DNA from: Candidatus Moraniibacteriota bacterium
GTDB lineage: Bacteria > Patescibacteriota > Minisyncoccia > Moranbacterales > UBA1568
NCBI GenBank assembly: GCA_017983435.1
Contig: JAGOBM010000002.1
Location: forward strand, 33,414 to 97,413
Direction of reading: 5' to 3'
Length of the DNA: 64,000 nucleotides
The translations under genes were made by a program, and so were the position numbers. Position 1 is the first letter of the stretch. Every line of letters begins with the position of its first letter. Positions 4,918 to 60,240 of this stretch are shown here, piece by piece. The notes under the pieces were generated by a model. That model had not been told where the DNA came from. It did not search any database and worked only from the letters and a program-made list of their open reading frames with translations.

Positions 4918-4929
4918 ACAAAGATAGGG

Positions 4930-5038
4930 AGAATATGGAATAGAGTATAGAGAATAAAGGTTTCTGAAACAATAACCCTCCATTGCGGAGGATTATTGTT
5001 TTTCTTTTCTGTATTCCTTATTCTACATTCTCTATTCT
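4930..5038. repeat. GAATA-rich inverted-repeat element (arms 4930-4956 and 5012-5038) flanking a CCTCC-ATTGC-GGAGG hairpin
   Basis: The arms AGAATATGGAATAGAGTATAGAGAATA and TATTCCTTATTCTACATTCTCTATTCT belong to the same family as elements at eight other loci listed in the findings. It is intercistronic between fdx and sufT. Confidence 0.6.
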
Positions 5039-5044
5039 AGAGAA

Positions 5045-5314
5045 CTATTCTGGGAAAATCTGCTTGCCGGTCTCATCCTTGATGATGATGGCGGCGACCG
5101 GACAGGCCTTGGCGGCGTTCAGAATCGTATCATTATCGTCTTCATCAGCGGTCGAGAGGATGGCGGCCTTTCCGTTCTCGTCGAGAGCAAAGGCTTTCAT
5201 CGCGATCGCGGTACACGGGGCGGCTCCGATGCAGACATTCGATTCAACTTCGACGGTCCAGCCATTCGCGAGCTTTACCGGGCCGTAGGGGCGGGCTTCA
5301 TCTTTCCAAGCCAT
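5045..5314 (-). CDS. fdx: Ferredoxin (small 4Fe-4S/3Fe-4S type)
   Basis: It is 89 aa with CIGAAPC...CP cysteine spacing. It sits inside the suf operon. Confidence 0.7.
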   Translation of the reverse strand: MAWKDEARPYGPVKLANGWTVEVESNVCIGAAPCTAIAMKAFALDENGKAAILSTADEDDNDTILNAAKACPVAAIIIKDETGKQIFPE

Positions 5315-5315
5315 A

Positions 5316-5684
5316 CTATTCTTGTTTACTGTTTACTGCTTTGCTGAATGTTTCCAGGGAGAGGAGGGCACACTTCAAGCGATTCGGAGAGAGCGAGACT
5401 CCTAGTAGAGCGAGGAGACCGTCTGTGTCGAAAGTGCTGGCTTCCGCAATCGTCTTTCCTTTCACGAATTCGGAGAGGAGCGACGCGCTCGCCTGTGAAA
5501 TAGCGCATCCTGAACCGGAAAACTTCACATCGGCAATAATACCATTTTTCACGGAAAGCTGCATCTCAAGCCGATCACCGCAGGTCGGATTGTTGGCCGC
5601 AGCCCGGTGCGTCGGCGCCTTCAGCACGCCCTGATTGCGAGGGTTGCGATAGTGGTCGAGGATGAGGTCTTGGTACAGGCTCAT
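5316..5684 (-). CDS. sufU: SUF FeS cluster scaffold/sulfur-transfer protein SufU (NifU/IscU-like)
   Basis: NPTCGDRLEM...FSGSGCAISQAS...RLKCALL shows the three conserved Cys of SufU/IscU. Confidence 0.8.
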   Translation of the reverse strand: MSLYQDLILDHYRNPRNQGVLKAPTHRAAANNPTCGDRLEMQLSVKNGIIADVKFSGSGCAISQASASLLSEFVKGKTIAEASTFDTDGLLALLGVSLSPNRLKCALLSLETFSKAVNSKQE

Positions 5685-5690
5685 ACAGAT

Positions 5691-6944
5691 TTATGCTAAG
5701 AGGGTGAGTGCTTTTTTGGCAGCTTCGATGAATCGATCGATATCTCCTTCCGTCGTGTATATCCCGAAACTGATACGGGCCGTGGACGTGATATCGAGTC
5801 TGCGGTGGAGCGGACTGGCGCAGTGTTCGCCGGCGCGGATACAGATAGACTGTTCACCGAGCAGATGCGCGAGGTCGTGTGGGTGGATGCCCTTGAGAGC
5901 AAAGGCGATAAGTCCGCTCCGTCGCTCAGGCGATGATGGTCCCAGGATGCGGATGGCATCCCCGAAAGTCTCGGTCAGGCGCGTGAGAGCCGAGCGGATG
6001 AGCGATGCTTCATGAGCACGGATGGCTTCCACCCCGATCGTTTCGAGGAAGTCGAGGGCGGCACCCCAGCCGATGACGCCGGAGATATTCGGCGTGCCAG
6101 CTTCAAAGCGGTAGGGAATGTCTTTGTACTTCCTGGGAGCAGAACAAGCCCGCCCGTTTTCTGATGGCGGACAAGCATCCAATACCATACCGCCGCCGAA
6201 AGTCAGGGGGGGCAGAGTCTCGAGGAGTGAGGCTCGGCCATAGAGAATACCGACGCCGGTCGGGCCATACAGTTTGTGCGCCGAGAAGGCGACAAAATCC
6301 GCGTTCCACTCGGCGACATCGATGGGGATATGGAGAGCGGCTTGGGCGGCATCGATCACGGTGAGGGTGTCTCTGTTTTTTGCTCGAACCGCCTGGATGA
6401 TATCCGTCACGGGATTGATCCCGCCGAAGACATTGGAAACAGCGGAGAAAGCGACCAGCACCGTCCGAGCATCCACGAGTGTAGCCATAGCGACTGGTTC
6501 GATGAGACCATCGGCATCAAACGGGACGATACGAAGCTCGATGTCCTTGGCTTCCGCGAGCTCGACCCAGGGGAGAAAGTTGGCATGGTGCTCAGCGTCG
6601 GTGATGACGATATTGTCTCCTGCTCGGAGTCGGGGGGCGATCCAGGTGGCGACCATATTGAGAGCCTGAGTCGTGTTTTGGGTGAAGATGATTTCTCTCG
6701 GGGTGGCTCCGATGAAACGAGCTGTCCGCTCCCGGACTGCTTCGAACGCTTCGGTGGCTTGCTCGGCGATCGGATAGAGGCCGCGGCCGATATTGGCCGA
6801 ATATTCCTCTTCATAGGCCCGTTCGGCCGTGATGACGCAGTCCGGTTTCAGGCTGGTCGCTGCCGAATCGAGGTATGCGAGCTCGGGGTGATGGGAGAAT
6901 ATCGGGAAATATTCCCGGATATCCGCTGGGAGAACACGGTTCAT
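5691..6944 (-). CDS. sufS: Cysteine desulfurase SufS (PLP-dependent class V aminotransferase)
   Basis: SAHKLYGPTGVGILYG contains the PLP-Lys motif, and RAGEHCASPL contains the active-site Cys. It overlaps sufD by ATGA. Confidence 0.9.
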   Translation of the reverse strand: MNRVLPADIREYFPIFSHHPELAYLDSAATSLKPDCVITAERAYEEEYSANIGRGLYPIAEQATEAFEAVRERTARFIGATPREIIFTQNTTQALNMVATWIAPRLRAGDNIVITDAEHHANFLPWVELAEAKDIELRIVPFDADGLIEPVAMATLVDARTVLVAFSAVSNVFGGINPVTDIIQAVRAKNRDTLTVIDAAQAALHIPIDVAEWNADFVAFSAHKLYGPTGVGILYGRASLLETLPPLTFGGGMVLDACPPSENGRACSAPRKYKDIPYRFEAGTPNISGVIGWGAALDFLETIGVEAIRAHEASLIRSALTRLTETFGDAIRILGPSSPERRSGLIAFALKGIHPHDLAHLLGEQSICIRAGEHCASPLHRRLDITSTARISFGIYTTEGDIDRFIEAAKKALTLLA

Positions 6945-7537
6945 AGGCGGGAAGAAAAGGTATGAAGGATATCCGGCAAGACACAGTCCGTACCGGTATG
7001 CCGGGTGATGCTCTCCGTCAGGTGACTGACGAATCCTTGGGCGATCGCCGCTTCGGCTTGCGTTCGGGTGAGTCCGCGGCTTTCCAGAAAAAAAATCTGT
7101 TCCGGATCGGGGGCGCTCATCGTGGCAGCGTGACCGCAGCGGACGTCGTCTTGTTCGATCTCGAGCGCGGGGAGAGAGCGTGCTTCGACATTCGGAGAGA
7201 GGAGGAGGTGCTTCATCTCCTGATGAGCATCGGAGCGGACAGCGGATCGTTTGATCGAGAGTAGTCCTTGCCAGTCGCAGCCGGTCTGGCTTGCGAGGAG
7301 GCTCCGCCCGGTGAAGGACGAGCGCGTATCGGCTCCGCTATGGATCTGCGATATCCGGCTTTCGATGCGGCTGCCGCCATCAGGCAGAAACAGCGCGATG
7401 ATATGCGCTTCCGATCGATCGCCCTCGAGCTCAAAAGCGATATCGCCGGACCGATTGAACAGAAAGAACACGCACTGCTCATTTTCCTTGAGCGTGTAGC
7501 GTTTTTTCTGGTCGTGAGAGATATCGATGAAGCGCAT
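6941..7537 (-). CDS. sufD: FeS assembly protein SufD (short form)
   Basis: It has a SufBD-domain C-terminal pattern (CGHAATMSAPDPEQIFFLESRGL) at 198 aa. It lies between sufB and sufS. Confidence 0.7.
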   Translation of the reverse strand: MRFIDISHDQKKRYTLKENEQCVFFLFNRSGDIAFELEGDRSEAHIIALFLPDGGSRIESRISQIHSGADTRSSFTGRSLLASQTGCDWQGLLSIKRSAVRSDAHQEMKHLLLSPNVEARSLPALEIEQDDVRCGHAATMSAPDPEQIFFLESRGLTRTQAEAAIAQGFVSHLTESITRHTGTDCVLPDILHTFSSRL

Positions 7538-7554
7538 AAATAATGTCTGAATTT

Positions 7555-8964
7555 CTATCCTACACTGCCTTCCATCTCGAGGTTGATCAGCCGGTTGAGC
7601 TCGATGGAGTATTCGAGAGGGATCTCTTTGACAACGGGTTCGAGAAAGCCGTTGACAAGGAGTCCTTCGGCATCGGACTGTTTCAGTCCGCGGGACATAA
7701 GGTAGAAGAGCTTTTCGGCAGAGATCTTCTCGACGGTGGCTTCGTGTTCGACTCGGGCGGTCGGTTCATTGACCCGCATGGTCGGATAGGTATCGGAGCG
7801 CGACTCTGGATCGAGGATGAGCGCATCGCAGACGACGGAGGTCTTGGCTCCCCGGGCGCCCTTGCCGATGTGGACGATGCCGCGGTAGGAAGTGCGCCCG
7901 CCGTCCTTGCTGATGGATTTGGAAATGATGCGCGATGTCGTCTCGGGAGCGAGGTGAATCATCTTGGCGCCGGCATCCTGGTGCTGATGCGCTCCGGCAT
8001 AGGCGATGGAGAGGACTTCGCCATGCGCGCCTCGGCCGGCCAGGTAGACCGCCGGATACTTCATCGTGACGCCGGATCCGATATTGCAGTCGATCCATTC
8101 CATGGAAGCGTTTTCTTCGGCTCTGGCCCGTTTGGTGACGAGATTGTAGATATTCTTCGACCAGTTCTGCACGGTGGTGTAGCGGACGCGAGCGTTTTTC
8201 TTGACGAAGATCTCGACGACCGCCGAATGGAGCGAGCTGGTCCGGTAGATAGGCGCGGTGCAGCCTTCGACATAGTGCACGGAACTGCCTTCGTCGGCGA
8301 TGATGAGCGTGCGTTCGAATTGCCCGAAGGCCTCCGAGTTGATACGGAAGTAGGCCTGGAGCGGCAGATCAACTTTGACTCCTTTCGGTACGTAGACGAA
8401 TGAACCACCTGACCAGACGGCCGAGTTGAGCGCGGCGAATTTGTTGTCGTGCGGCGGAATGAGTGTGCCGAAGTATTCTCGGACCAGTTTCGGATATTTC
8501 CGGACCGCCGTATCCATATCGCAGAAGATGACACCTTTGGCAGAGAGCGTCTTTTCGATGCTCTCGTAGACGACCTCGCTCTCGTATTGGGCGGAGACAC
8601 CGGCAAGGAATTTCCGTTCCGCCTCGGGGACACCGATACGATCGTAGGTCTCTTTGATTTCATCTGGGAGCTCTTCCCAGGTCTTCGATTGGGCATCAGT
8701 CGCCCGGAGATAGTAGGTGATTGCGTCGAAATCGATGGCGGACAAATCAGCGCCCCATGAGGGAAGAGGCATGCCGACGAAGCGCTCGTAGGCCTTGAGA
8801 CGGAAATTTTTCATCCAGGCCTTCTCATCTTTGATTTGGGAAATCTCCGCAACGATATCAGCGGAAAGCCCTGTGCCGGTCTTGCGGACTGATCGTTCAG
8901 GCATGGCAAAGCCGAAGCGGTAATCGCCGAGGTCTACGTTCTTGGTTGGTTTATGCTTTGACAT
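7555..8964 (-). CDS. sufB: FeS assembly protein SufB
   Basis: It is 469 aa with conserved SufB blocks ([20 protein letters not shown]...; ...[11 protein letters not shown]...). Confidence 0.9.
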
Positions 8965-18286: not shown

Positions 18287-18676
18287 TAGTGGAGTTGATG
18301 GGAATTGCACCCATGTCCAGTCACGTTTTTCCAAAATATTCTACAAGCGTAGTCTGCTTTAGGTCCCTTCCTCTCTATGAAACAGACGAAAGAGAGCGGA
18401 AGACTGGTCTTCTGCAAAAGGCGATCGGAGGAGAAAGACGAGAAGAAAATCTCCGGACCTTCCCGAAGTATGACACCGGCGGTTCTCTATCGGGAGTCGA
18501 GGAGCCGATGGTCCGCGCGAATTAGGCGCGGGCGAAAGCGAAAGACGGAGCGAACGCCGAAGCGAACGTGGCCTTGGCCTTTGGGATGAAGTTTGCACTT
18601 ATCGGTTGATGGAAGTTTTTACGATCGTACCATCATGATCGGCTTGCCTATTTTGAAAGTACGCCCTGTCGAGTCT
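18287..18676 (-). ncRNA. ssrA: tmRNA (transfer-messenger RNA, SsrA)
   Basis: The minus-strand 5-prime end GGGGUUGUUUAGACUCGACAGGG and 3-prime end GGACAUGGGUGCAAUUCCCAUCAACUCCA(CUA) closely parallel E. coli GGGGCUGAUUCUGGAUUCGACGGG...GGACGCGGGUUCAACUCCCGCCAGCUCCACCA. The acceptor stem GGGGUUG/CAACUCC keeps the G3:U wobble. A resume-codon context UAAGU-GCA-AAC and an Ala-rich tag frame ending in UAA lie on plus 18522-18596. The gene is directly downstream of smpB. Confidence 0.8.
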
Positions 18677-18772
18677 AAACAACCCCATACCATCAAGGAT
18701 GATGGAAATTCCAAATTCCAAAGCCCAAATTCCCAGCGGAATTGTAGAGTTTGGATCTTAGAATCTGAAGAA

Positions 18773-20542: not shown

Positions 20543-20884
20543 ATGACTCTGGAGCAGAATCATCCGAATCTGAAAAAACTCTTGGTATTCTTTCTGGTAG
20601 TGTTCGTAATCCTGGTCGGATTGGCCGGGTTGAAAGTGTATCTCGATGTATCGAAGTCGCCAGAGACGCCGGTGATGCAGGATGGCGGAGCACCTACGGG
20701 TCGTCTGACTGAGGCGGATATAGAGCAGCAGCTTGAAGCTTTGAATGTCGGAGATGATCCGAATAAGCACCCAACCGCGGCGGAAATGGAGAAACAGCTT
20801 GAAACCTTGAATGCTGGAGATGATACCGCCAAGCGCCCGACGGAAGCAGAAATCAGACAACAGCTTGAAGCTTTGAATCAGTAG
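20543..20884 (+). CDS. Small N-terminally membrane-anchored protein with 22-aa tandem repeats (EADIEQQLEALNVGDDPNKHPT)
   Basis: It has one TM helix followed by two and a half copies of a 22-aa acidic helical repeat. Confidence 0.6.
   Translation: MTLEQNHPNLKKLLVFFLVVFVILVGLAGLKVYLDVSKSPETPVMQDGGAPTGRLTEADIEQQLEALNVGDDPNKHPTAAEMEKQLETLNAGDDTAKRPTEAEIRQQLEALNQ
20711..20881 (+). repeat. Tandem 66-bp coding repeat, about 2.6 copies
   Basis: Units at 20711-20776, 20777-20842 and 20843-20881 have near-identical cores, CAGCTTGAAGCTTTGAATG and CAGCTTGAAACCTTGAATG. Confidence 0.7.
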
Positions 20885-21548: not shown

Positions 21549-21682
21549 TGCTGGGGAGGTTGGCTTTTAGGCTCATATGCGCTACGATAGGTGGGTATGC
21601 CCGGTAGTAGAACTTCGAAAATTTCAGACACCGAGTTTTTACAAAGTTATGTTTTAGGGAGAAAAGGGTAAATTATTTTTTC

Positions 21683-23359
21683 TTGGAAGAGACTTCCCTA
21701 TTCGAAGTTTCACTGCCGGGTATGAAAACAACTCTAGCGCAAGCGATACAGGGAGCGATCGAGGGATTGATCCGGACGGGTCAGCTGCCTCTATTCGATC
21801 TGCCTTGCATCCAGGTGGAGCGTCCGAAGGATGAACAGTTCGGCGAATATACGTCGAATATCGCTTTGATCGCAGCCAAAATAGTCGGCAAGAATCCGAG
21901 AGAATTGGCGGAGCTGATCAAAGAACAATTAACAATTAACAATCAACAAGAAACATTCTTCGAAAAAATCGAAGTCGCTGGTCCGGGGCATCTCAATCTC
22001 TATCTGGCGCAGTCGGTACTCGGCGGTGTCGTGGAAACTATCGCAGCGCGACAGGATCAGTACGGGGCATCAGATCAGGGAGCAGGCCAGTCCGTGAACA
22101 ACGAATTCGTCTCGGCCAATCCGACCGGCCCGCTGCATCTCGGCAATGGCCGCGGGGGATTCTTTGGCGATACGCTCTCGCACATCCTGCGCAAGGCGGG
22201 ATACGCCGTAACGAATGAATACTATGTGAACGATGCCGGCGAGCAAGTGCTGAAGCTCGGGCATAGCGTCCTCAAGGACGAGGAGGCGGTATATGGAGGA
22301 GAATATATTGAAACGCTCCATGAGCGTTTCAAACAACAAACAACAAACAACAAACAACAAGATGGGGAAGGTGTAGTGAGGGAAACAGGCGAGTGGGCGG
22401 CGGAATATATTCTCACACATTTCATCCAGCCGACGCTCAAGGATCAGATGCGGATTACGTTCGATGTCTTCACTTCGGAAAAGCAAGAAATAATCGAGCG
22501 TGGGTATGTCGAGAAAGCCCTGGAGATTTTCAAGGAGAAGCAGCTTTCGTTCGAGACGGACGGCGCACTCTGGCTCAAGACGACCGCTTTCGGCGATGAC
22601 AAAGATCGAGTGCTCGTGAAGGGCGATGGGACGAAGACATACTTCGCGTCCGATTGCGGCTATATCCTCTCCAAGATGGAGCGCGGCTTTACACGGCTTA
22701 TCCTCACGCTCGGAGCGGATCATCACGGCTATCGGGCCCGGATCGAAGCAGCAGCACAGGCGCTCGGATTTGTCGGCCGTTTCGATTTTGTCTTCGTCCA
22801 GCTGGTCCGCCTCATGAAAGACGGCCAGGAAGTGCGGATGAGCAAGCGGGCGGGCAATGTCGTCTCGATCGACGAGCTGATCGAGCGGGTCGGACCGGAT
22901 GTCGCACGCTTCTTCTTTCTCGTGTACAGCCCCGATACGCATATGAACTTTGATCTCGGACTGGCAGAAGAGCGGTCACAGAAGAACCCGGTCTACTATG
23001 TGCAGTACGCGCATGCTCGGCTGGCCAGCGTGCTAGCCAAAGCGGCGGAGGCCGGACTCGATCCGGATCGCGGCGATGTCACTCTGCTCCAGGACCCGAA
23101 GGAGCGCCTGCTCCTCGCTGAGCTCCTCTCATTCCCGGATTTGATCTTGGATACGGCCGAGGATTATGCCGTCCATCGGCTGCCTCAGTATGCTATCCGT
23201 CTGGCTGACCGGCTGCACTCTTTCTATGATGCCTGCCGGGTCATCGATACCGAACAGCCAGCGATGTCTGAGGCTCGCCTGAGGCTCGTGAAAAGTGCTA
23301 AAATAGTCTTGAGTGAGACACTTCGTCTCATAGGTGTTACTGCTCCGGAAAAGATGTAG
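21683..23359 (+). CDS. argS: Arginyl-tRNA synthetase
   Basis: SANPTGPLHLGNGRGG is the HIGH-region variant, and MSKRAGNVV the KMSK variant. It contains two in-frame simple-sequence stretches (INNQQ; QQTTNNKQQ). Confidence 0.9.
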   Translation: MEETSLFEVSLPGMKTTLAQAIQGAIEGLIRTGQLPLFDLPCIQVERPKDEQFGEYTSNIALIAAKIVGKNPRELAELIKEQLTINNQQETFFEKIEVAGPGHLNLYLAQSVLGGVVETIAARQDQYGASDQGAGQSVNNEFVSANPTGPLHLGNGRGGFFGDTLSHILRKAGYAVTNEYYVNDAGEQVLKLGHSVLKDEEAVYGGEYIETLHERFKQQTTNNKQQDGEGVVRETGEWAAEYILTHFIQPTLKDQMRITFDVFTSEKQEIIERGYVEKALEIFKEKQLSFETDGALWLKTTAFGDDKDRVLVKGDGTKTYFASDCGYILSKMERGFTRLILTLGADHHGYRARIEAAAQALGFVGRFDFVFVQLVRLMKDGQEVRMSKRAGNVVSIDELIERVGPDVARFFFLVYSPDTHMNFDLGLAEERSQKNPVYYVQYAHARLASVLAKAAEAGLDPDRGDVTLLQDPKERLLLAELLSFPDLILDTAEDYAVHRLPQYAIRLADRLHSFYDACRVIDTEQPAMSEARLRLVKSAKIVLSETLRLIGVTAPEKM

Positions 23360-23423
23360 TTTTTGCCCACCCCAGTCTCCGAAAGCCGATTTCTTATGTG
23401 GCTGATACCCCGCCGCATGCTCG

Positions 23424-23510
23424 TCTCACTGGTCGCGAAAGAGATTTCTCCTGATACCCGAGACTTCCGAGGCGATAGTGAGGGAAAATCTGCTTTTGTG
23501 GCCAGTGAGA
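23424..23510 (+). ncRNA. Conserved stem-loop element, copy 2 of 3
   Basis: An 18-bp outer stem, TCTCACTGGTCGCGAAAG / CTTTTGTGGCCAGTGAGA, has three positions paired only as G-U/U-G. The loop is UGAUACCCGAGACUUCCGAGGCGAUAGUGAGGGAAAA. Confidence 0.45.
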
Positions 23511-23595
23511 CACTGAGGAGAAAAAGTCTTTGCAGCCCAAGAAATGAAATGCGAAGTAATCAAGATACTTTAGTAAAACTTAAAACAAAAAAAAA

Positions 23596-28987: not shown

Positions 28988-29006
28988 GAAATTCTTTTCC
29001 GCCTCC

Positions 29007-29037
29007 GATATTCAATATTCCATATTCTCTATTCTTC
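29007..29037. repeat. GAATA-family repeat element (single arm, reverse orientation)
   Basis: GATATTCAATATTCCATATTCTCTATTCTTC lies between the ileS stop and the recO start. Confidence 0.55.
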
Positions 29038-30957: not shown

Positions 30958-33997
<3,040 letters not shown>

Positions 33998-37351: not shown

Positions 37352-38791
37352 TTGAAGAATTTTCCTATGGCAGAACAGAAAAATGAGCGGATGGAGAAAA
37401 TAGTGTCGCTCTGCAAGCGGCGCGGGTTCGTGTTTCCTTCTTCTGAGATCTATGGTGGCTTCGGCGCGATCTATGATTACGGCCACTATGGGACGCTGCT
37501 CAAGAACAATATCCGCGATGCCTGGTGGAAGGCGATGGTGCAGGAACGTGATGACACGGTCGGTCTCGATAGCGCGATCTTCATGCATCCGAAGACCTGG
37601 GTGGCTTCCGGTCATGTCGAGGGGTTCAATGATCCGCAGGTGGATTGCCGCCAGTGCAAGAGCCGCTTCCGGGCGGACCACATCCTCGAGGAATTCGGGG
37701 TGAACGCCGACAAGGCGCCGCTCGATTTTATCAATGCCGAGCTCGGCAAGCTGCGCGAGGCAGGCAAGCTCGTCTGTGCGAGCTGCGGATCGAAAGACAT
37801 GACCGACGCGAAAGTGTTCTCGCTCATGGTGAAGTCGAATCTCGGGTCGCCGACGGATGCTCTGTCCGAGGACACGGTCGTCTATCTGCGTCCGGAAACC
37901 TGCGGCGGCATCTATCTTGAATACAAGAACACGGTGAACTCGGCTCGGGTCAAGCTGCCGTTCGGCATAGCGCAGGTCGGCAAGGCGTTCCGCAATGAGA
38001 TCGTCGCCCGGCAATTCATCTTCCGTACCCGCGAATTCGAGCAGATGGAGATGCAGTATTTTCATCATCCGTCGCAGACCACCGAGAAATACGCCGAGTG
38101 GCAGGCAGCCAGGTGGGCCTGGTACCGTGAATTCGGCATTCCGGAAGACAAGATCCGCTGGTACAAGCACGAGAAGCTCGCGCACTATGCGTCGGAAGCC
38201 TATGACATCGAGTATGATTTCGCGGCACTCGGCGGCTTCAAAGAAGTCGAGGGGATACATGCGCGCGGCGATTGGGATCTCTCCCAGCACAGCAAGTTCT
38301 CGGGTGAGGACCTCTCGTATTTCGATGAGAAGACCGGCGAGCGCTTCATCCCGCATATCATGGAGACCTCGGTCGGTCTGGCTCGCCTTTTCCTCATGTT
38401 CGTTGATCAGGCCTATGTCGAAGAGGAAGTGAAGCCGGGTGATATCCGCTCAGTCCTCAAGATCGATCGCCGGTTGGCTCCGGTCAAAGTGGCTATCTTC
38501 CCACTCCTCAAGAACAAGCCCGAGCTCGTCGGTAAGGCGCGCGAGATCTACGATGCTCTCAAGAAAGAATGGCAGTGCGAGTTTGATGACAACGGCAATG
38601 TCGGCAAGCGCTATCGCCGCCAGGACGAGATTGGCACGCCATACTGCGTGACGGTCGATTTTGACACGATCGGAGCAGGAGACGATTCGGCGCTCACTGG
38701 TACCGTCACTGTCCGCGATCGCGACACCATGGAGCAAGTCCGCATCAAAGCCGATGAGCTTGAGCGGTATTTCGCCGAACGCCTGAGATAA
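37352..38791 (+). CDS. glyQS: Glycyl-tRNA synthetase (alpha2 dimeric type)
   Basis: RGFVFPSSEIYGGFGAIYDYGHYG...FRNEIVARQFIFRTREFEQMEMQYF is class II motif 2, followed by a C-terminal anticodon-binding domain. Confidence 0.9.
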   Translation: MKNFPMAEQKNERMEKIVSLCKRRGFVFPSSEIYGGFGAIYDYGHYGTLLKNNIRDAWWKAMVQERDDTVGLDSAIFMHPKTWVASGHVEGFNDPQVDCRQCKSRFRADHILEEFGVNADKAPLDFINAELGKLREAGKLVCASCGSKDMTDAKVFSLMVKSNLGSPTDALSEDTVVYLRPETCGGIYLEYKNTVNSARVKLPFGIAQVGKAFRNEIVARQFIFRTREFEQMEMQYFHHPSQTTEKYAEWQAARWAWYREFGIPEDKIRWYKHEKLAHYASEAYDIEYDFAALGGFKEVEGIHARGDWDLSQHSKFSGEDLSYFDEKTGERFIPHIMETSVGLARLFLMFVDQAYVEEEVKPGDIRSVLKIDRRLAPVKVAIFPLLKNKPELVGKAREIYDALKKEWQCEFDDNGNVGKRYRRQDEIGTPYCVTVDFDTIGAGDDSALTGTVTVRDRDTMEQVRIKADELERYFAERLR

Positions 38792-38804
38792 TGCTGATTT
38801 TTCC

Positions 38805-38834
38805 CTATTCAATATTCTAAATTCCATATTCTAC
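38805..38834. repeat. GAATA-family repeat element (reverse orientation)
   Basis: CTATTCAATATTCTAAATTCCATATTCTAC lies immediately upstream of the M16 peptidase start. Confidence 0.55.
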
Positions 38835-40260: not shown

Positions 40261-41286
40261 ATGACTATCGATGAACGGGTAGAGATCGGTACGAAATTGC
40301 TTGTCCGTGCGGCGCTCTTGGTCGGCGGCGTGTATGCGCTCTATCTCTTGCGCGATGTCGTACTTCTGGTGCTCCTGGCCGTGCTGACGGCGGCGGCACT
40401 CACGCCAGCGGTCAACAAGCTGCGGGCCAGAGGACTTTCCCGTACGGCGGCGGTGATCATCATCTACGCTGTGCTGTTCCTCGGGGGAGTCGCGCTGCTC
40501 ATGGTGTTCATTCCGGTGTTCTTCTCGGAAATCAAGGAGTTCCTCGGTAATTGGCCGAAGTACTCCGAACGTCTCGGCGTGTTCTTCTCCGGCATCGAAG
40601 CCTATATGCAGGCGCTCGGATTCGTCTTCGATAAGCAGGCATTCTTCACGGATATCGAGGGATCGATCGGCAGCTGGTTCGGCGGGCTGTTCTCGACGAC
40701 GATCAATCTCTTCCAGGGGTTCATCCACGCGATCGGCTTCTTCTTCCTCGCGCTCTACCTGTCGCTCGAGGAGAAAGGCATCGAGAAATTCTTCCTCATG
40801 CTGACGCCGGATCAGTATCATGACCACGCGCTCTCCATCGCGTCGCGCATGCAGGGCAAGGTGAGCCAGTGGCTGTTCGGCCAGGCGATACTCATGCTCA
40901 TCGCGTTTACGATCTACTATATCGGTCTCTCGATTATCGGTGTACCGTACGCGCTGGCCATCGCCTTCTTCGGCGGACTGATGGAAATCCTGCCGTACAT
41001 CGGACCGGTGCTTGCGGCCGTGCCGGCTATCCTGGTTGGCCTGCTCTATTCCCCGGGCCTCGGATTTGCCGCTCTCATCTTCTATCTCATCGCCCATCAG
41101 GTGGAAGCGCATATCGTCGCTCCGCAGGTCATGAAGCGATCGGCTGATCTCAATCCGGTCGCGCTCATCATCGCTATCCTCATCGGTATAGAGCTTGGCG
41201 GACCGCTCGGCGTCATCCTGGCTGTACCGGTGACGATGATGCTCTCGGTGTTCGTCGAAGATATTATGATCAAGCGAAACGCTTAG
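40261..41286 (+). CDS. AI-2E family transporter (UPF0118/PerM-like permease)
   Basis: It has eight TM helices, and AHQVEAHIVAPQVMKRSADLNPVALIIAILIGIELGGPLGVILAVPV is the family C-terminal block. Confidence 0.8.
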   Translation: MTIDERVEIGTKLLVRAALLVGGVYALYLLRDVVLLVLLAVLTAAALTPAVNKLRARGLSRTAAVIIIYAVLFLGGVALLMVFIPVFFSEIKEFLGNWPKYSERLGVFFSGIEAYMQALGFVFDKQAFFTDIEGSIGSWFGGLFSTTINLFQGFIHAIGFFFLALYLSLEEKGIEKFFLMLTPDQYHDHALSIASRMQGKVSQWLFGQAILMLIAFTIYYIGLSIIGVPYALAIAFFGGLMEILPYIGPVLAAVPAILVGLLYSPGLGFAALIFYLIAHQVEAHIVAPQVMKRSADLNPVALIIAILIGIELGGPLGVILAVPVTMMLSVFVEDIMIKRNA

Positions 41287-41320
41287 AATAGAATATCGAA
41301 TATTGAATAGAGAATATGGA
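41285..41320 (+). repeat. GAATA-family repeat element overlapping the rsmI start codon
   Basis: AGAATAGAATATCGAATATTGAATAGAGAATATGGA. The ATG of rsmI lies inside the motif. Confidence 0.55.
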
Positions 41321-44196: not shown

Positions 44197-45219
44197 ATGT
44201 TCGATGTCCATGCCCATCTGCACGACGAGGCTTTTGTCGGGGATCGTGATGCTACGGTTGATCGGGCGCGGGCCGTCGGGCTGGAGGATATCGTGACGAT
44301 TGGTACGGATCCGGAGGAGAATCGTCGGGCGGTCGCCTGTGCCGAAGCGTATCCTGATGTGTGGGCCAGCGTCGGTCTGCATCCGCATTTCTTTGACGAA
44401 GAATATAGAATATGGAATGAAGAATATGGAGGGAAAATACCAGTACGAAACGAGACAGAAAAAGAGAGTCCTATTCAATATTCAACATTCGATATTCTCT
44501 TCGGAGACAAAGGGCGTATTCGAGAATATGTCGCGCAATTGAGAAAAGTCGCTGAAAGTTCGAGTAAGGTCATAGCTATCGGGGAGTGCGGTCTGGATTA
44601 TTACAGGCGCCAGTCAGCAGATAGCAATCAACAGGAAACGATTACAGAGGAGCAGAAGGCGTTCCAGCGGGAAGGATTTCTGGCGCAGATAGCTATCGCG
44701 GAAGATCTCGGTTTGCCGCTCATCGTCCATACCCGTCCCTCTCTGGGTTCGATGCCCGCCCGCAACGATCCGCAAGCGAAGCGTAGCGATTCGGGCGGAG
44801 ATGCCTATGAAGATGTGTTTCTTATACTAAAATCTAAAATCACTGCCCGTCCGGCAGGCGGGAAAAATCTAAAATCAGTAGTGCTTCACTGTTATATGGG
44901 TGACCTCTCAGTGACGGAAAAATTCCTCAGTTTGCCGGGAGTGCACTTCTCTTTTACCGGCAATATCACCTACAAGGTCAAGGAGGGATCGGATCGCGAT
45001 GAGACGCTCCGGATGATTCCGATCGAGCGGATGCTCTCGGAGACCGATTGCCCGTACCTCGCGCCGGTGCCGTATCGGGGGCAGCGCAATGAGCCGGCCT
45101 ATGTGGCGGAAGTCGTGCGCCGTATCGCTCTCATGCAGCAGATGACGTATACTGAGGCTGAGGAGCAGATCGGGATCAATACCCGACGCGTGTTTCCCCG
45201 TATGTTTGAAACCGTATAA
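44197..45219 (+). CDS. tatD: TatD-family metal-dependent hydrolase (DNase)
   Basis: MFDVHAHL...AIGECGLDYY...HCY...SETDCPY are the TatD motifs. It carries a roughly 35-aa in-frame insertion encoded by a GAATA-family inverted-repeat element. Confidence 0.85.
   Translation: MFDVHAHLHDEAFVGDRDATVDRARAVGLEDIVTIGTDPEENRRAVACAEAYPDVWASVGLHPHFFDEEYRIWNEEYGGKIPVRNETEKESPIQYSTFDILFGDKGRIREYVAQLRKVAESSSKVIAIGECGLDYYRRQSADSNQQETITEEQKAFQREGFLAQIAIAEDLGLPLIVHTRPSLGSMPARNDPQAKRSDSGGDAYEDVFLILKSKITARPAGGKNLKSVVLHCYMGDLSVTEKFLSLPGVHFSFTGNITYKVKEGSDRDETLRMIPIERMLSETDCPYLAPVPYRGQRNEPAYVAEVVRRIALMQQMTYTEAEEQIGINTRRVFPRMFETV
44398..44502. repeat. GAATA-family inverted-repeat element inserted in-frame within tatD
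   Basis: The arms are GAAGAATATAGAATATGGAATGAAGAATATGGAG (44398-44431) and CCTATTCAATATTCAACATTCGATATTCTCTTC (44470-44502). The reading frame is preserved. Confidence 0.65.
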
Positions 45220-49442: not shown

Positions 49443-49465
49443 TAGGTTTTGAGAAATTAAAGACG

Positions 49466-49541
49466 AAGAATATCGAATATGGAATGTAGAATGTAGACAA
49501 AATACATTTCCCTATATTCTCTATTCGAAATTCTCTATTCT
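49466..49541. repeat. GAATA-family inverted-repeat element between atpA and atpG
   Basis: The arms are GAAGAATATCGAATATGGAATGTAGAATGTAG (49466-49496) and CTATATTCTCTATTCGAAATTCTCTATTCT (49512-49541). Confidence 0.6.
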
Positions 49542-50950: not shown

Positions 50951-51478
50951 ATGCCGGAAAAGGCAGCGAAAAATCTGGTAGCGATTCCGAATGAGCGCAT
51001 CGAAAAGCGGATTTTTTGGCTGCGCGGGGAAAAGGTGATGCTTGATGCCGATTTGGCAGAGTTGTATGATGTATTGACCGGAAACCTGAACAAAGCGGTC
51101 AAGCGTAATATCGATCGGTTCCCATCCGATTTTATGTTTCAGTTGAACAAGGCGGAATTTGATGGTTTGATGTTCCAAAATGGAATATCAAAAGGGCGAG
51201 GCGGGAAAAGAAAGCTGCCGTACGCTTTTACCGAGCAGGGTGTGGCGATGCTCTCGAGCGTATTGAAGAGCCAGCGGGCAGTAGCAGTGAATATCCAAAT
51301 TGTCCGGACATTCGTAGAGCTGCGGAAGATGCTCGCAACGCATGAAGGACTGAGGAAGAAGATCGAGGCGATGGAACGGAAGTATGACAAACAGTTCAAG
51401 GCGGTATTCGATGTGTTGCGGCAACTCTTGAAAGAAGAAACGGAGCCGAAACAGAAGATCGGATTTGCTATAAAACAG

Positions 51479-51481
<3 letters not shown>
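50951..51481 (+). CDS. ORF6N-domain (KilA-N-related) DNA-binding protein
   Basis: LRGEKVMLDADLAELYDV...NKAVKRNIDRFPSDFMFQLNKAEF...GKRKLPYAFTEQGVAMLSSVLKSQRAVAVNIQIVRTFVELRK is the characteristic ORF6N signature. Its stop codon lies inside a GAATA-family repeat. Confidence 0.75.
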
Positions 51482-52942
<1,461 letters not shown>

Positions 52943-53456: not shown

Positions 53457-53706
53457 TGGAGGGTCACATCAGTTGAGGCTTGATTTTTCCCGGGTACCGT
53501 GCTATGCTCTCGAGACAACTGAGAAAGTCCGACGCGGTTCCCGCCTCACGTTCGCTTGAGCAAGAGGATCAGGAATCGCACAGCTCCGCTCCCGAGACTT
53601 TCTTTGTTGACGGAGTTTTTTTTGTGAGAAAGATTCTTCCGGATCGCGTGAGCGTCACGGATACGCAGGGTTGTTTCATATAATTTATCAGTAAGAAGAA
53701 GACATT

Positions 53707-54251: not shown

Positions 54252-54740
54252 ATGAACGTGAATAAAGTGATTCTCGTCGGTCGATTGACACGTGATCCGG
54301 ATATGCGGACCACTCCGACCGGGCAGTCGGTAGCGACGCTCGGCATGGCGACGAACAACTACTGGACCGATAAGGCTGGGCAGAAGCAGGAGAAGACCGA
54401 GTTTCATACGGTCGTCCTCTGGGGGAAGCTCGCCGAAATCGCCGGTCAGTATCTCACGAAGGGTCAGGAGTGTTTTGTCGAAGGACGTCTCCAGAGCCGC
54501 GAATATACTGACAAGCAGGGTCAGCCGCGCAAGGTGACGGAAATCGTTGGTGAGAATATGCAGCTCGGATCCCGTGCGCAAGGCGGTGGACAGGGTGGTA
54601 GCTATCAGGCTTCATCAGCTCCGCGCCCGGCCGCTCGTCCCGCTGCTGCCGCTCCGGCCGCCGCACCGATGGAAGAGGAAATCCCGACTATCAATCTCGA
54701 TGACGAGAAAGAGATTCGGATCGAAGATGTCCCGTTCTAA
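54252..54740 (+). CDS. ssb: Single-stranded DNA-binding protein
   Basis: MNVNKVILVGRLTRDPDMR...FHTVVLWGKLAE is the OB fold, followed by a Gly/Ala/Pro-rich linker and an acidic tail ending EDVPF. Confidence 0.9.
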   Translation: MNVNKVILVGRLTRDPDMRTTPTGQSVATLGMATNNYWTDKAGQKQEKTEFHTVVLWGKLAEIAGQYLTKGQECFVEGRLQSREYTDKQGQPRKVTEIVGENMQLGSRAQGGGQGGSYQASSAPRPAARPAAAAPAAAPMEEEIPTINLDDEKEIRIEDVPF

Positions 54741-54782
54741 GCTCTTTGCTTGATACGACGCGACATGATGCGTCTCGGGATG

Positions 54783-54866
54783 CGGAAGAGATTTTTCCTG
54801 CTGCCCGAGACTTCCGAGGCGATAGCGAGGGAAAAATCTGCTTTCGCATCCCGAGAAATGACACTA
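54783..54866 (+). ncRNA. Conserved stem-loop element, copy 3 of 3
   Basis: The outer stem is TCTCGGGATGCGGAAG / CTTTCGCATCCCGAGA. The loop is UGCUGCCCGAGACUUCCGAGGCGAUAGCGAGGGAAAA. It lies between ssb and rpsR. Confidence 0.45.
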
Positions 54867-54908
54867 TTTTTTTGAAGATTAAGTAACTCGTATTGATTTG
54901 CAGTCACT

Positions 54909-55109
54909 ATGGCACTCGAAACCAAGCAGCTCAAGAAGCTCGCGCACATCGACTATAAGGATGCGTACTTTCTGCGCAAATTCCTGAACTCTCAGGGCAA
55001 GATGTATCCTCCGAAGCGGCACGGATTGTCCGCCAAGCAGCAGCGCTGTCTCGCTCAGGCGGTCAAGCGCGCCCGCTTCATGGCGCTCATCCCGTACGTC
55101 GTGAAATAA
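54909..55109 (+). CDS. rpsR: 30S ribosomal protein S18
   Basis: IDYKDAYFLRKFLNSQGKMYPPKRHGLSAKQQRCLAQAVKRARFMAL is the canonical S18. Confidence 0.9.
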   Translation: MALETKQLKKLAHIDYKDAYFLRKFLNSQGKMYPPKRHGLSAKQQRCLAQAVKRARFMALIPYVVK

Positions 55110-55265
55110 CAGGTATTGCCTGATTTTACCGTCCGCCAGCTGGCGGATCGGAAATGAAAGTGAGTTTTCATTTCGCTCACTTCCCTGCCTGTCGGCAGAC
55201 AGGGTTTGGTAATAAAACGGTTCCGGAGATTGGCTCCGGATGGTGAAGTTTAAGATTGTTCATCT

Positions 55266-59790: not shown

Positions 59791-60240
59791 TTGCACAAGG
59801 TATCGAATAGAACCACCAACCGACTCACCTCGTGCGCCGTCAAAATCCCTGCGATCCGCCAGCTGGCGGATTGACTGACGTGAAAGCATTTCATTCCGTC
59901 ATCCTGACGGAAACCATGCTGAAATGCTTTCAAGCCGCGCCCTGAGGCGAGATCGGTCTGGAGGTTCTTTACGCTTGTGCTCTGGTCTAGGAAATGATTT
60001 TGCATAACTTCCGACTTCGCTGCAACGTTGCGATACCACCCCTCGCCGACCCAGCCAGAAAGCTTTTTCTGATGCCCGAGGTGCTTTAAACCGATAGTGA
60101 GGAAAAAATTTGCTGGCTGGATCGGTGAGGGTCATGATTCTATGGATTTATAGCCTCTGGTTCGGGAAACTGTCGGGAAATAGTATACAGAAAATAGTGT
60201 CGGCGCGTCTCTGGAAAAAGATTCTGCTTGGCACCAAATC

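Follow-up and report, generated by a model that had tools for sequence, protein, structure and literature searches.

A stable hairpin between ssb and rpsR

In the window (the whole 64-kb stretch of DNA analysed here) ssb occupies positions 54252-54740 and rpsR positions 54909-55109. The names ssb, rpsR and rpsF were taken from Pfam SSB, Ribosomal_S18 and Ribosomal_S6 matches on the orthologous genes. The intervening gap, 54741-54908, is 168 nt long, and the gene ends therefore confirm the length given in an earlier interpretation made from the letters alone (the sequence-only reading). We folded this gap and obtained -62.8 kcal/mol (z = -5.5); none of 200 shuffled sequences was equally stable. 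The fold is dominated by one hairpin, c3, which lies at 54773-54856 on the plus strand, 52 nt 5' of the rpsR start, with inverted-repeat arms at 54773-54788 and 54841-54856. Covariance model R1 matched it at 54767-54861 with 101.8 bits. The sequence-only reading had placed a stem-loop at 54783-54866. We observed that the hairpin is there but about 10 nt further left, as the earlier interval begins within the 5' arm and extends beyond the 3' arm.

All parts of c3 are read on the plus strand. The distal stem pairs the 5' arm TCTCGGGAT (54773-54781), read from the sequence, with the 3' arm ATCCCGAGA (54848-54856), placed by the sequence and the inverted-repeat arms. The proximal stem is formed by GCGGAAGAGATTTTTCC (54782-54798), an arm kept in all copies of alignment A4, and by GGAAAAATCTGCTTTCGC (54830-54847), which carries a bulged G at 54840 in the same alignment. 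Between them lies an asymmetric apical module, TGCTGCCCGAGACTTCCGAGGCGATAGCGAG (54799-54829), the most conserved layer. It contains an internal loop or CCC bulge, tandem G.A/A.G pairs, an apical helix of 5 pairs and a UUCCGA loop.

We searched the whole window against Rfam 15 at the gathering threshold and found no family for the element. The only match was tmRNA, whose gene lies at 18287-18686 on the minus strand (110.8 bits). A search of the spacer at E <= 10 gave generic long-hairpin matches only, for example MIR8001, whose 29.8 bits fall short of its threshold of 90. The cores of small ribozymes such as hammerhead and twister, which Rfam covers, were also compared by eye and rejected; a single unbranched hairpin does not fit them. 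Our search of the literature on repeats and hairpins in CPR/Patescibacteria returned nothing relevant, and no account of repeats scattered in the genomes of these bacteria or of structured non-coding elements.

Some smaller features lie nearby. A run of seven T residues 12 nt 3' of c3 is part of the flank and is unmoved where the element is inverted. An exact 14-nt palindrome, CCGCCAGCTGGCGG, occurs at 55133-55146, in the rpsR-efp spacer, and at 59856-59869, 3' of rplY (2 seen and 0 expected in the window). The rpsR-efp spacer contains two more hairpins at about 55156-55245.

Copies, structure and strand polarity of the hairpin family

The sequence-only reading had described three copies of the stem-loop. 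The copies it named (929-1012, 23423-23511 and c3) are all genuine, but its count was too low. With the filters of R1 off, we found exactly five copies in 64 kb, one of them on the minus strand (67-102 bits, E <= 2e-14). This match of five copies is far beyond chance and gives a density of about 1 copy per 13 kb. The minus-strand copy, c0 (497-590), was detected by blastn and by R1 (96.5 bits at 496-590). It lies in the xseA/xseB gap, antisense to both genes, and represents a UA/UA subtype in which Watson-Crick UA/UA replaces the tandem G.A. The other copies are on the plus strand: c1 (929-1012, 72.2 bits) is located 3' of xseB and 5' of korA, and c2 (23423-23511, 87.1 bits) is located 3' of argS and has an ortholog in the same orientation in contig L027. 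Just 5' of c2, at 23375-23397 on the minus strand, we read GTCTC and CGAAAGCCGATTTCTTAT as a probable degenerate half copy. With low confidence, this stretch resembles the reverse complement of a 3' half, and a matching arm seems to occur in L027 at 1543. The divergent copy c4 (60040-60131, plus strand, 67.5 bits) lies between rplY and an amidase gene and has the apex GAGGU-GCUUUAA-ACCGA. It was identical in the sole other contig available for strain comparison. In the sister lineage the counterpart intergenic region can no longer be aligned, and no copy was found there.

Further copies were sought in genome and metagenome collections with exact patterns, scans that may miss distant relatives of the element. 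The genome collection yielded six copies, all in one related MAG, CAZOKB01, which is about 80% identical to the window at the nucleotide level in syntenic parts. The metagenome scan returned 23 loci, 15 of them true copies with conserved arms and 8 chance matches in G+C-rich coding sequence. Together with blastn-short and R1, the total rose to about 35 distinct copies, about 30 of them outside the window (in the related MAG and in metagenome contigs). The element was found only in close relatives (78-100% nucleotide identity to this genome in syntenic parts). It was not found in three less close Candidatus Moranbacteria (CPR) relatives, and the viral contigs, phage records and plasmid records that we searched gave no match. 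As to the identity of the host, the SSB encoded in the window is 100% identical to the SSB of a MAG named Candidatus Moranbacteria. CAZOKB01 (loci L001-L006, a GTDB species representative) bears the title 'uncultured Bdellovibrionales', and the SSB of this MAG shares 90% identity with that of the window. Other close SSB homologues carry the NCBI name Candidatus Moranbacteria, and the title of CAZOKB01 looks taxonomically mislabelled.

No copy overlaps the larger predicted ORFs; the only overlaps are with short, probably spurious ones. Many are located 8-30 nt 3' of a stop codon. With respect to neighbouring genes, about 12 copies are sense and about 16 antisense (about 28 copies, with crude gene calls around the metagenome copies). 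Adjacent copies were in opposite orientation in 6 of 7 pairs (p ~0.06 under random orientation), and all four copies of the UA/UA subtype adjoin a copy of the main subtype. At L006 a perfect 22-23-bp palindrome of proximal-arm sequence encloses a nested copy, which is complete and has a distal stem of its own. Seven contigs break off within the element and a chimeric contig crosses it, as is expected of a repeat. In L052 (logan SRR23073218) the ssb-rpsR copy of the sister lineage is fused, via the shared apical module, to sequence that neighbours the L006 copy; this joint reflects either chimeric assembly or recombination at the repeat.

We described the anatomy of the element and counted covariation on alignment A4, which contains 30 copies. 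The hairpin is 73-99 nt long across copies, and the element measures about 95 nt. Each copy is built of three layers. Its distal stem is specific to the locus, with 8-14 bp and a weak consensus (roughly GTCTC..YGG). The proximal stem is conserved and has 17 bp, GCGAAAGAGRTTTTTYC with GRAAAAATCTGCTTTCGY, and one bulged G, found on the 3' arm in nearly all copies. The apical module of 31-34 nt is asymmetric and reads CUGMUR-CCC-GA-GAC-UUCCGA-GGC-GA-UAGYGAGG, with a helix of 5 pairs and a UUCNRA-type loop. Pairwise identity of paralogues was 27-36% in the flanks, 42-46% in the distal stem, 68-72% in the proximal stem and 77% in the apical module, so that conservation increases from base to apex. 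Of the three layers the distal stem varies most from copy to copy, yet its pairing is kept.

Of the pair cells in A4, 84% were paired, compared with 42-54% when the partners were slid. Two-sided changes were present in 26 of the 35 pairs, and the observed values were reached by none of 500 shuffles. Within the apical helix we observed G-C/C-G at columns 46-58 and C-G/U-A at columns 48-56, as well as the alternatives GA, UA and GC at columns 44-60 and 45-59. One subtype has U-A/A-U in place of the tandem G.A/A.G, and one copy has G-C/C-G there. A swap of A.G to G.A at columns 47/57 recurs in independent copies (L012; L040), and U.G/G.U pairs are conserved at columns 36-68, 39-65, 28-76 and 19-86. 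Two drawings of the apical module are possible, in a k-turn register or with a symmetric internal loop, and the counts do not separate them.

We defined the sense strand of a copy by its apical module. The sense strand folded better in 28 of the 30 copies, with a mean advantage of 8.4 kcal/mol, and this asymmetry was equal for copies sense and antisense to host genes. In the proximal stem the sense strand had 51 wobble pairs and the antisense strand 5; in the distal stem the numbers were 23 and 29. The rule that all stem mismatches are G.U on the sense strand of the element thus holds for the proximal stem and fails for the distal one. Distal wobbles instead followed the coding strand of the host (30 vs 15, p ~0.04, from crude gene calls), which hints at either selection on the hairpin in mRNA or a mutation bias linked to transcription. 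Overall, the alignment demonstrates a structure with covariation, and a strand polarity of its apical module and proximal stem.

We also looked for signals around the hairpins. No promoter-like site was found at a conserved distance (the best upstream scores had a mean of 7.0 for the sense side and 6.7 for the antisense side). No U-tract or T-run adjoined the stems in the copies examined, and the terminator scan gave no site at the element. The surroundings of the hairpins contained no target-site duplication, flanking direct repeat, conserved flank motif or tetranucleotide. The sequence searched revealed neither a transposase nor a RAYT nor any other mobilising gene; tblastn with an approximate IS200 TnpA query gave nothing in 427 kb, and a search for arms in the collected loci, directed at an autonomous parent element with the same ends, gave no arm pair spanning a gene-sized insert.

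The ssb-rpsR spacer and other orthologous sites in relatives

The gene order rpsF-ssb-rpsR-efp was common to the window and all relatives compared. In the lineage of the window (SSB 99% identical to that of the window) the spacer has 168 nt and the element is sense in 9 of 9 contigs. In a sister lineage (L002 and L045-L055, SSB 90%) the spacer has 193 nt and the element is inverted at 11 of 11 loci. Four further types of spacer contain no element: 29 nt in L032 (SSB 90%), 30 nt in L033 (85%), 31 nt in L034 and L035 (82%), and 74 nt in L030 and L031 (83%).

The flanks of the sister-lineage spacer are >95% identical to those of the window, and the whole element between them is inverted, including the polarity of the bulged G. 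In this orientation the sense RNA cannot belong to the operon mRNA of the sister lineage. Since orientation is fixed within each lineage (9 window-lineage and 11 sister-lineage contigs), an active invertible switch is excluded. A simple inversion of a window-type copy is also an unlikely origin of the L002 copy, as the inner stems differ by about 20% and the flanks by about 5%; a change of subtype at two other sites speaks against it as well. In L040/L044, a strain of the window lineage, the flanks are those of the window but 7 changes fall in the central 60 nt, a patch that resembles gene conversion.

The two other sites were found by comparing L009:881 with L019:7350 and L009:2357 with L019:5916. 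In both pairs the flanks and distal stems are conserved, and the inner module is opposite in orientation and of another subtype. Orientation was alike for c2 and its counterpart in L027, and for L004 and L008:5341; the distal stems of the latter pair differ by two double substitutions, both fully compensated. A diverged copy, absent from the window, lies 50 nt 5' of rpsF and antisense to it in L033 and L045. Its 78-nt hairpin showed 0 differences between these two loci, with flanks that differ by about 9%. The aligned contigs demonstrate both insertion polymorphism and swaps of orientation.

Some other features were noted upstream of rpsF. The atpC-rpsF interval, only about 310 nt long in the window, holds in the sister lineage (L054/L055, ~5300-7930) a DGR with an RVT_1 reverse transcriptase and a weak bAvd match. 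A tie of the element to this reverse transcriptase is excluded: the gene sits in the DGR (RVT_1 and bAvd), to which no copy of the element belongs. A stretch 5' of rpsF (GAGAAAGTCCGACGCGGTTCCCGCC...GGAATCGCAC...) is conserved at 53520-53620 of the window, 2140-2290 of L045 and 1480-1630 of L033. It has no match in Rfam and might be a real rpsF leader.

A proposed dispersed palindromic repeat and its alternatives

We propose that c3 is a member of a new family of dispersed palindromic intergenic repeats of about 95 nt, similar to REP, ERIC or MITE elements, the inner module of which is exchanged between copies. We assign this reading a probability of roughly 0.6. The family is probably mobile. 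It occurs in many copies, some orthologous sites are empty and the sister lineage has the copy inverted; on these grounds we rejected a riboswitch or an rpsR-specific leader. In particular, absence from relatives with the same gene order and the flip in the sister lineage point to a dispersed repeat and not to a dedicated rpsR switch. The sequence-only reading had already argued against a pathway-specific riboswitch, and the occurrence of the family in unrelated intergenic contexts bears this out. It had preferred a general cis element or a small mobile RNA gene. A dispersed family agrees with a general or small mobile element; an RNA gene as such gains no support, and we rejected independent small RNA genes because no conserved promoter-like site lies upstream.

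The inner ~66 nt (proximal stem and apical module) is kept similar among copies and is replaced at occupied sites, sometimes in inverted form. In the mechanism that we propose, gene conversion or re-insertion, aided by the near-palindromic proximal arms, would be the most likely route. As these arms provide homology in both orientations, gene conversion between copies may account most simply for the homogeneity of the inner module and for its swaps in orientation. Alternatively, elements might re-insert at hairpin apexes, as at L006. The distal stem is locus-specific, and compensatory changes keep it paired. The strand polarity of the apical module suggests that a trans-acting factor recognises a single-stranded form, either sense DNA or sense RNA, and the module may therefore be the recognition site of a putative enzyme or protein that acts on the single-stranded element. 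Within the ssb-rpsR transcript, c3 would be merely a very stable hairpin of about -50 kcal/mol. Such a hairpin could be a target of RNase III or a barrier to 3'-exonucleases and could uncouple the fates of the ssb and rpsR mRNAs as a side effect of insertion. On the best reading, any effect of c3 on rpsR is incidental.

Several points count against the repeat reading. Conservation is lowest at the termini and highest at the apex, which is the reverse of typical MITEs and REPs. The leaning of the distal wobbles towards the host coding strand, away from the polarity of the element itself, hints that the hairpin may matter in mRNA or that mutation is biased by transcription. Neither a mobilising gene nor a target-site duplication nor a conserved flanking tetranucleotide was found. 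The compensatory changes and the polarity could reflect an RNA function in the host instead, and the compensation could also arise without selection, by quasi-palindrome correction or template switching at the DNA level.

The comparison with known repeats is instructive. REPs are mobilised by RAYT (Y1/HUH) transposases. Like REP, BIME and REPIN sequences, the element is an extragenic, multi-copy, strand-asymmetric imperfect palindrome of lineage-specific sequence (5 copies in 64 kb and about 30 in relatives), often found just after genes and inside operons, perhaps also favouring inverted pairs, and able to form stable hairpins in transcripts. Unlike them, it is about 95 nt long (20-40 nt per REP), has no GTAG-type tetranucleotide at its 5' foot, is most conserved at its asymmetric apex and not in the stem, and reaches a modest copy density. 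With ERIC/IRU, Correia (NEMIS), RPE and MITE-like elements it shares a size of about 100 nt, a long imperfect palindrome, a location in intergenic transcribed regions and occurrence in either orientation. It also shares presence/absence differences between relatives at orthologous sites, here the ssb-rpsR spacers that are empty in L030-L035 and the copy upstream of rpsF. It differs from MITEs in that its terminal inverted repeats are the least conserved part, no target-site duplication is seen, and the inner module swaps or inverts at fixed sites while the distal stem stays. In the attC sites of integrons the R/L boxes at the base are conserved, the apex varies and the orientation after cassette ORFs is uniform; the element has the reverse gradient, both orientations and housekeeping neighbours.

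Two traits of the family are unusual: the asymmetric apex is the most conserved layer, and the inner module is replaced or inverted at occupied sites while the distal stem stays. A rather speculative extension of the repeat reading would see the element as a hairpin 'cassette', in which a module of about 66 nt, possibly a k-turn RNP site, is installed, exchanged and inverted at the tips of locus-specific palindromic stems by a dedicated structure-specific enzyme via a single-stranded intermediate. If this were true, a CPR host with a reduced genome would gain an RNA or DNA unit that binds protein and may be set in one orientation or the other.

Among the alternatives to the dispersed repeat, we consider doubtful the possibility that the copies are structured RNAs that bind a protein, as small RNAs acting in trans or as RNP modules, and whose apex is a k-turn bound by an L7Ae-like or other RNA-binding protein. 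Here the C-helix would be CCUGCUG/UAGCGAGG, followed by a 3-nt CCC bulge, tandem G.A/A.G and the apical helix, and the long stem would protect the RNA. This layout, known here from sequence only, is exact and has the strand arrangement of an L7Ae-family k-turn in 25 of the 30 copies, and its pairing equals that of the alternative register. The recurrent A.G to G.A swap at columns 47/57, the better folding of the sense strand, the many conserved U.G/G.U pairs and the invariance of the rpsF-upstream copy between two lineages are consistent with such an RNA. On the other hand, five copies, including a whole subtype that keeps the hairpin, have Watson-Crick pairs in place of G.A, which suggests that a k-turn is not obligatory and that we are dealing with a resemblance. 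The symmetric-loop register fits equally well and holds the only two-sided covariation of the region (columns 40-64). Copies are flipped in place without being lost, and neither a promoter-like site at a conserved distance (7.0 vs 6.7) nor a U-tract or other 3' end signal accompanies the putative RNA.

Function at the level of DNA, independent of transcription, seems unlikely. The apex would be a binding site, or the element would form a cruciform or single-strand hairpin used in recombination, replication or by a nucleoid protein. An orientation independent of neighbouring genes, inverted pairs that resemble BIME arrays and the lack of transcription signals would agree with this, and G.T wobbles and tandem G.A pairs are tolerated in single-stranded DNA too. 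However, a double-stranded binding site does not explain the covariation of the stems, a cruciform does not explain a good apical fold on one strand only, and the narrow clade and presence/absence differences are at odds with a core chromosomal function.

It is very improbable that c3 is a cis element of the rpsF-ssb-rpsR operon which tunes rpsR as a processing site, an attenuator or an S6:S18-type site. The sequence-only reading had offered a processing site, an attenuator or a protein-binding site affecting rpsR, and the same spacer in related genomes speaks against any of these having evolved for rpsR: relatives with the same gene order lack the element, the sister-lineage copy is inverted, and the ratio of orientations in the family is about 12:16. 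Moreover, the four other copies in the window and dozens elsewhere adjoin unrelated genes, about half of them in antisense, and no Rfam ribosomal leader matched even at E <= 10. Absence from close relatives with this gene order is also an outcome that the sequence-only reading had itself named, together with uniform read-through, as pointing to a neutral repeat. These comparative data largely refute the operon reading, despite the position of c3 inside the operon shortly before rpsR and the fact that so stable a hairpin must affect the transcript somehow. The remaining point in its favour is a CCC/CCG bulge beside a hairpin that is superficially like the S6:S18 motif. This motif is a single-copy structure of the rpsF 5' UTR which lies directly 5' of rpsF and includes the Shine-Dalgarno sequence, with a CCR in a bulged loop 2-3 nt 5' of the latter (PMC3854524). 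Although both have a CCG/CCC bulge between stem and hairpin and c3 lies in the same operon, c3 is located between ssb and rpsR and not at the ribosome-binding site of rpsF, recurs beside unrelated genes and is antisense in the sister lineage. We therefore exclude identity with the S6:S18 motif; only the resemblance of the bulge is left.

Transcription terminators, intrinsic or hairpin-only, that share sequence by chance are hardly credible: the hairpins are stable and many lie just 3' of stop codons, but no T-run follows the stem in the copies examined, the terminator scan was negative at the element, the T7 run near c3 belongs to the flank, c3 sits inside a normally co-transcribed operon, and a conserved asymmetric apex of 31 nt is no feature of a terminator.

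Genomes of CPR/Patescibacteria are tiny and contain little non-coding DNA. A covarying, strand-polar family of hairpins that enters core operons and changes its orientation in place may serve as a marker for genome dynamics at the strain level. The element may also cause assembly breaks in MAGs of Moranbacteria, as the seven contig ends suggest, and it may lead to a mobilising or binding protein. For annotation, a conspicuous hairpin in a ribosomal-protein operon need not be a dedicated regulator.

The window contains other repeats as well. A second family consists of tandem heptamers GAATATN (21 matches, 0.24 expected), whose arrays are often inverted and form A+T-rich intergenic hairpins. 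We observed them at 4925-5038, 29005-29035, 33745-33780, 38788-38832, 41285-41320, 44395-44498, 49462-49541 and 51468-51544. Three tandem 66-nt repeats with 73-76% identity occupy 20702-20878, and an inverted repeat of 23 nt at 21597-21723, with arms that are 83% complementary and separated by 81 nt, lies across the predicted argS start.
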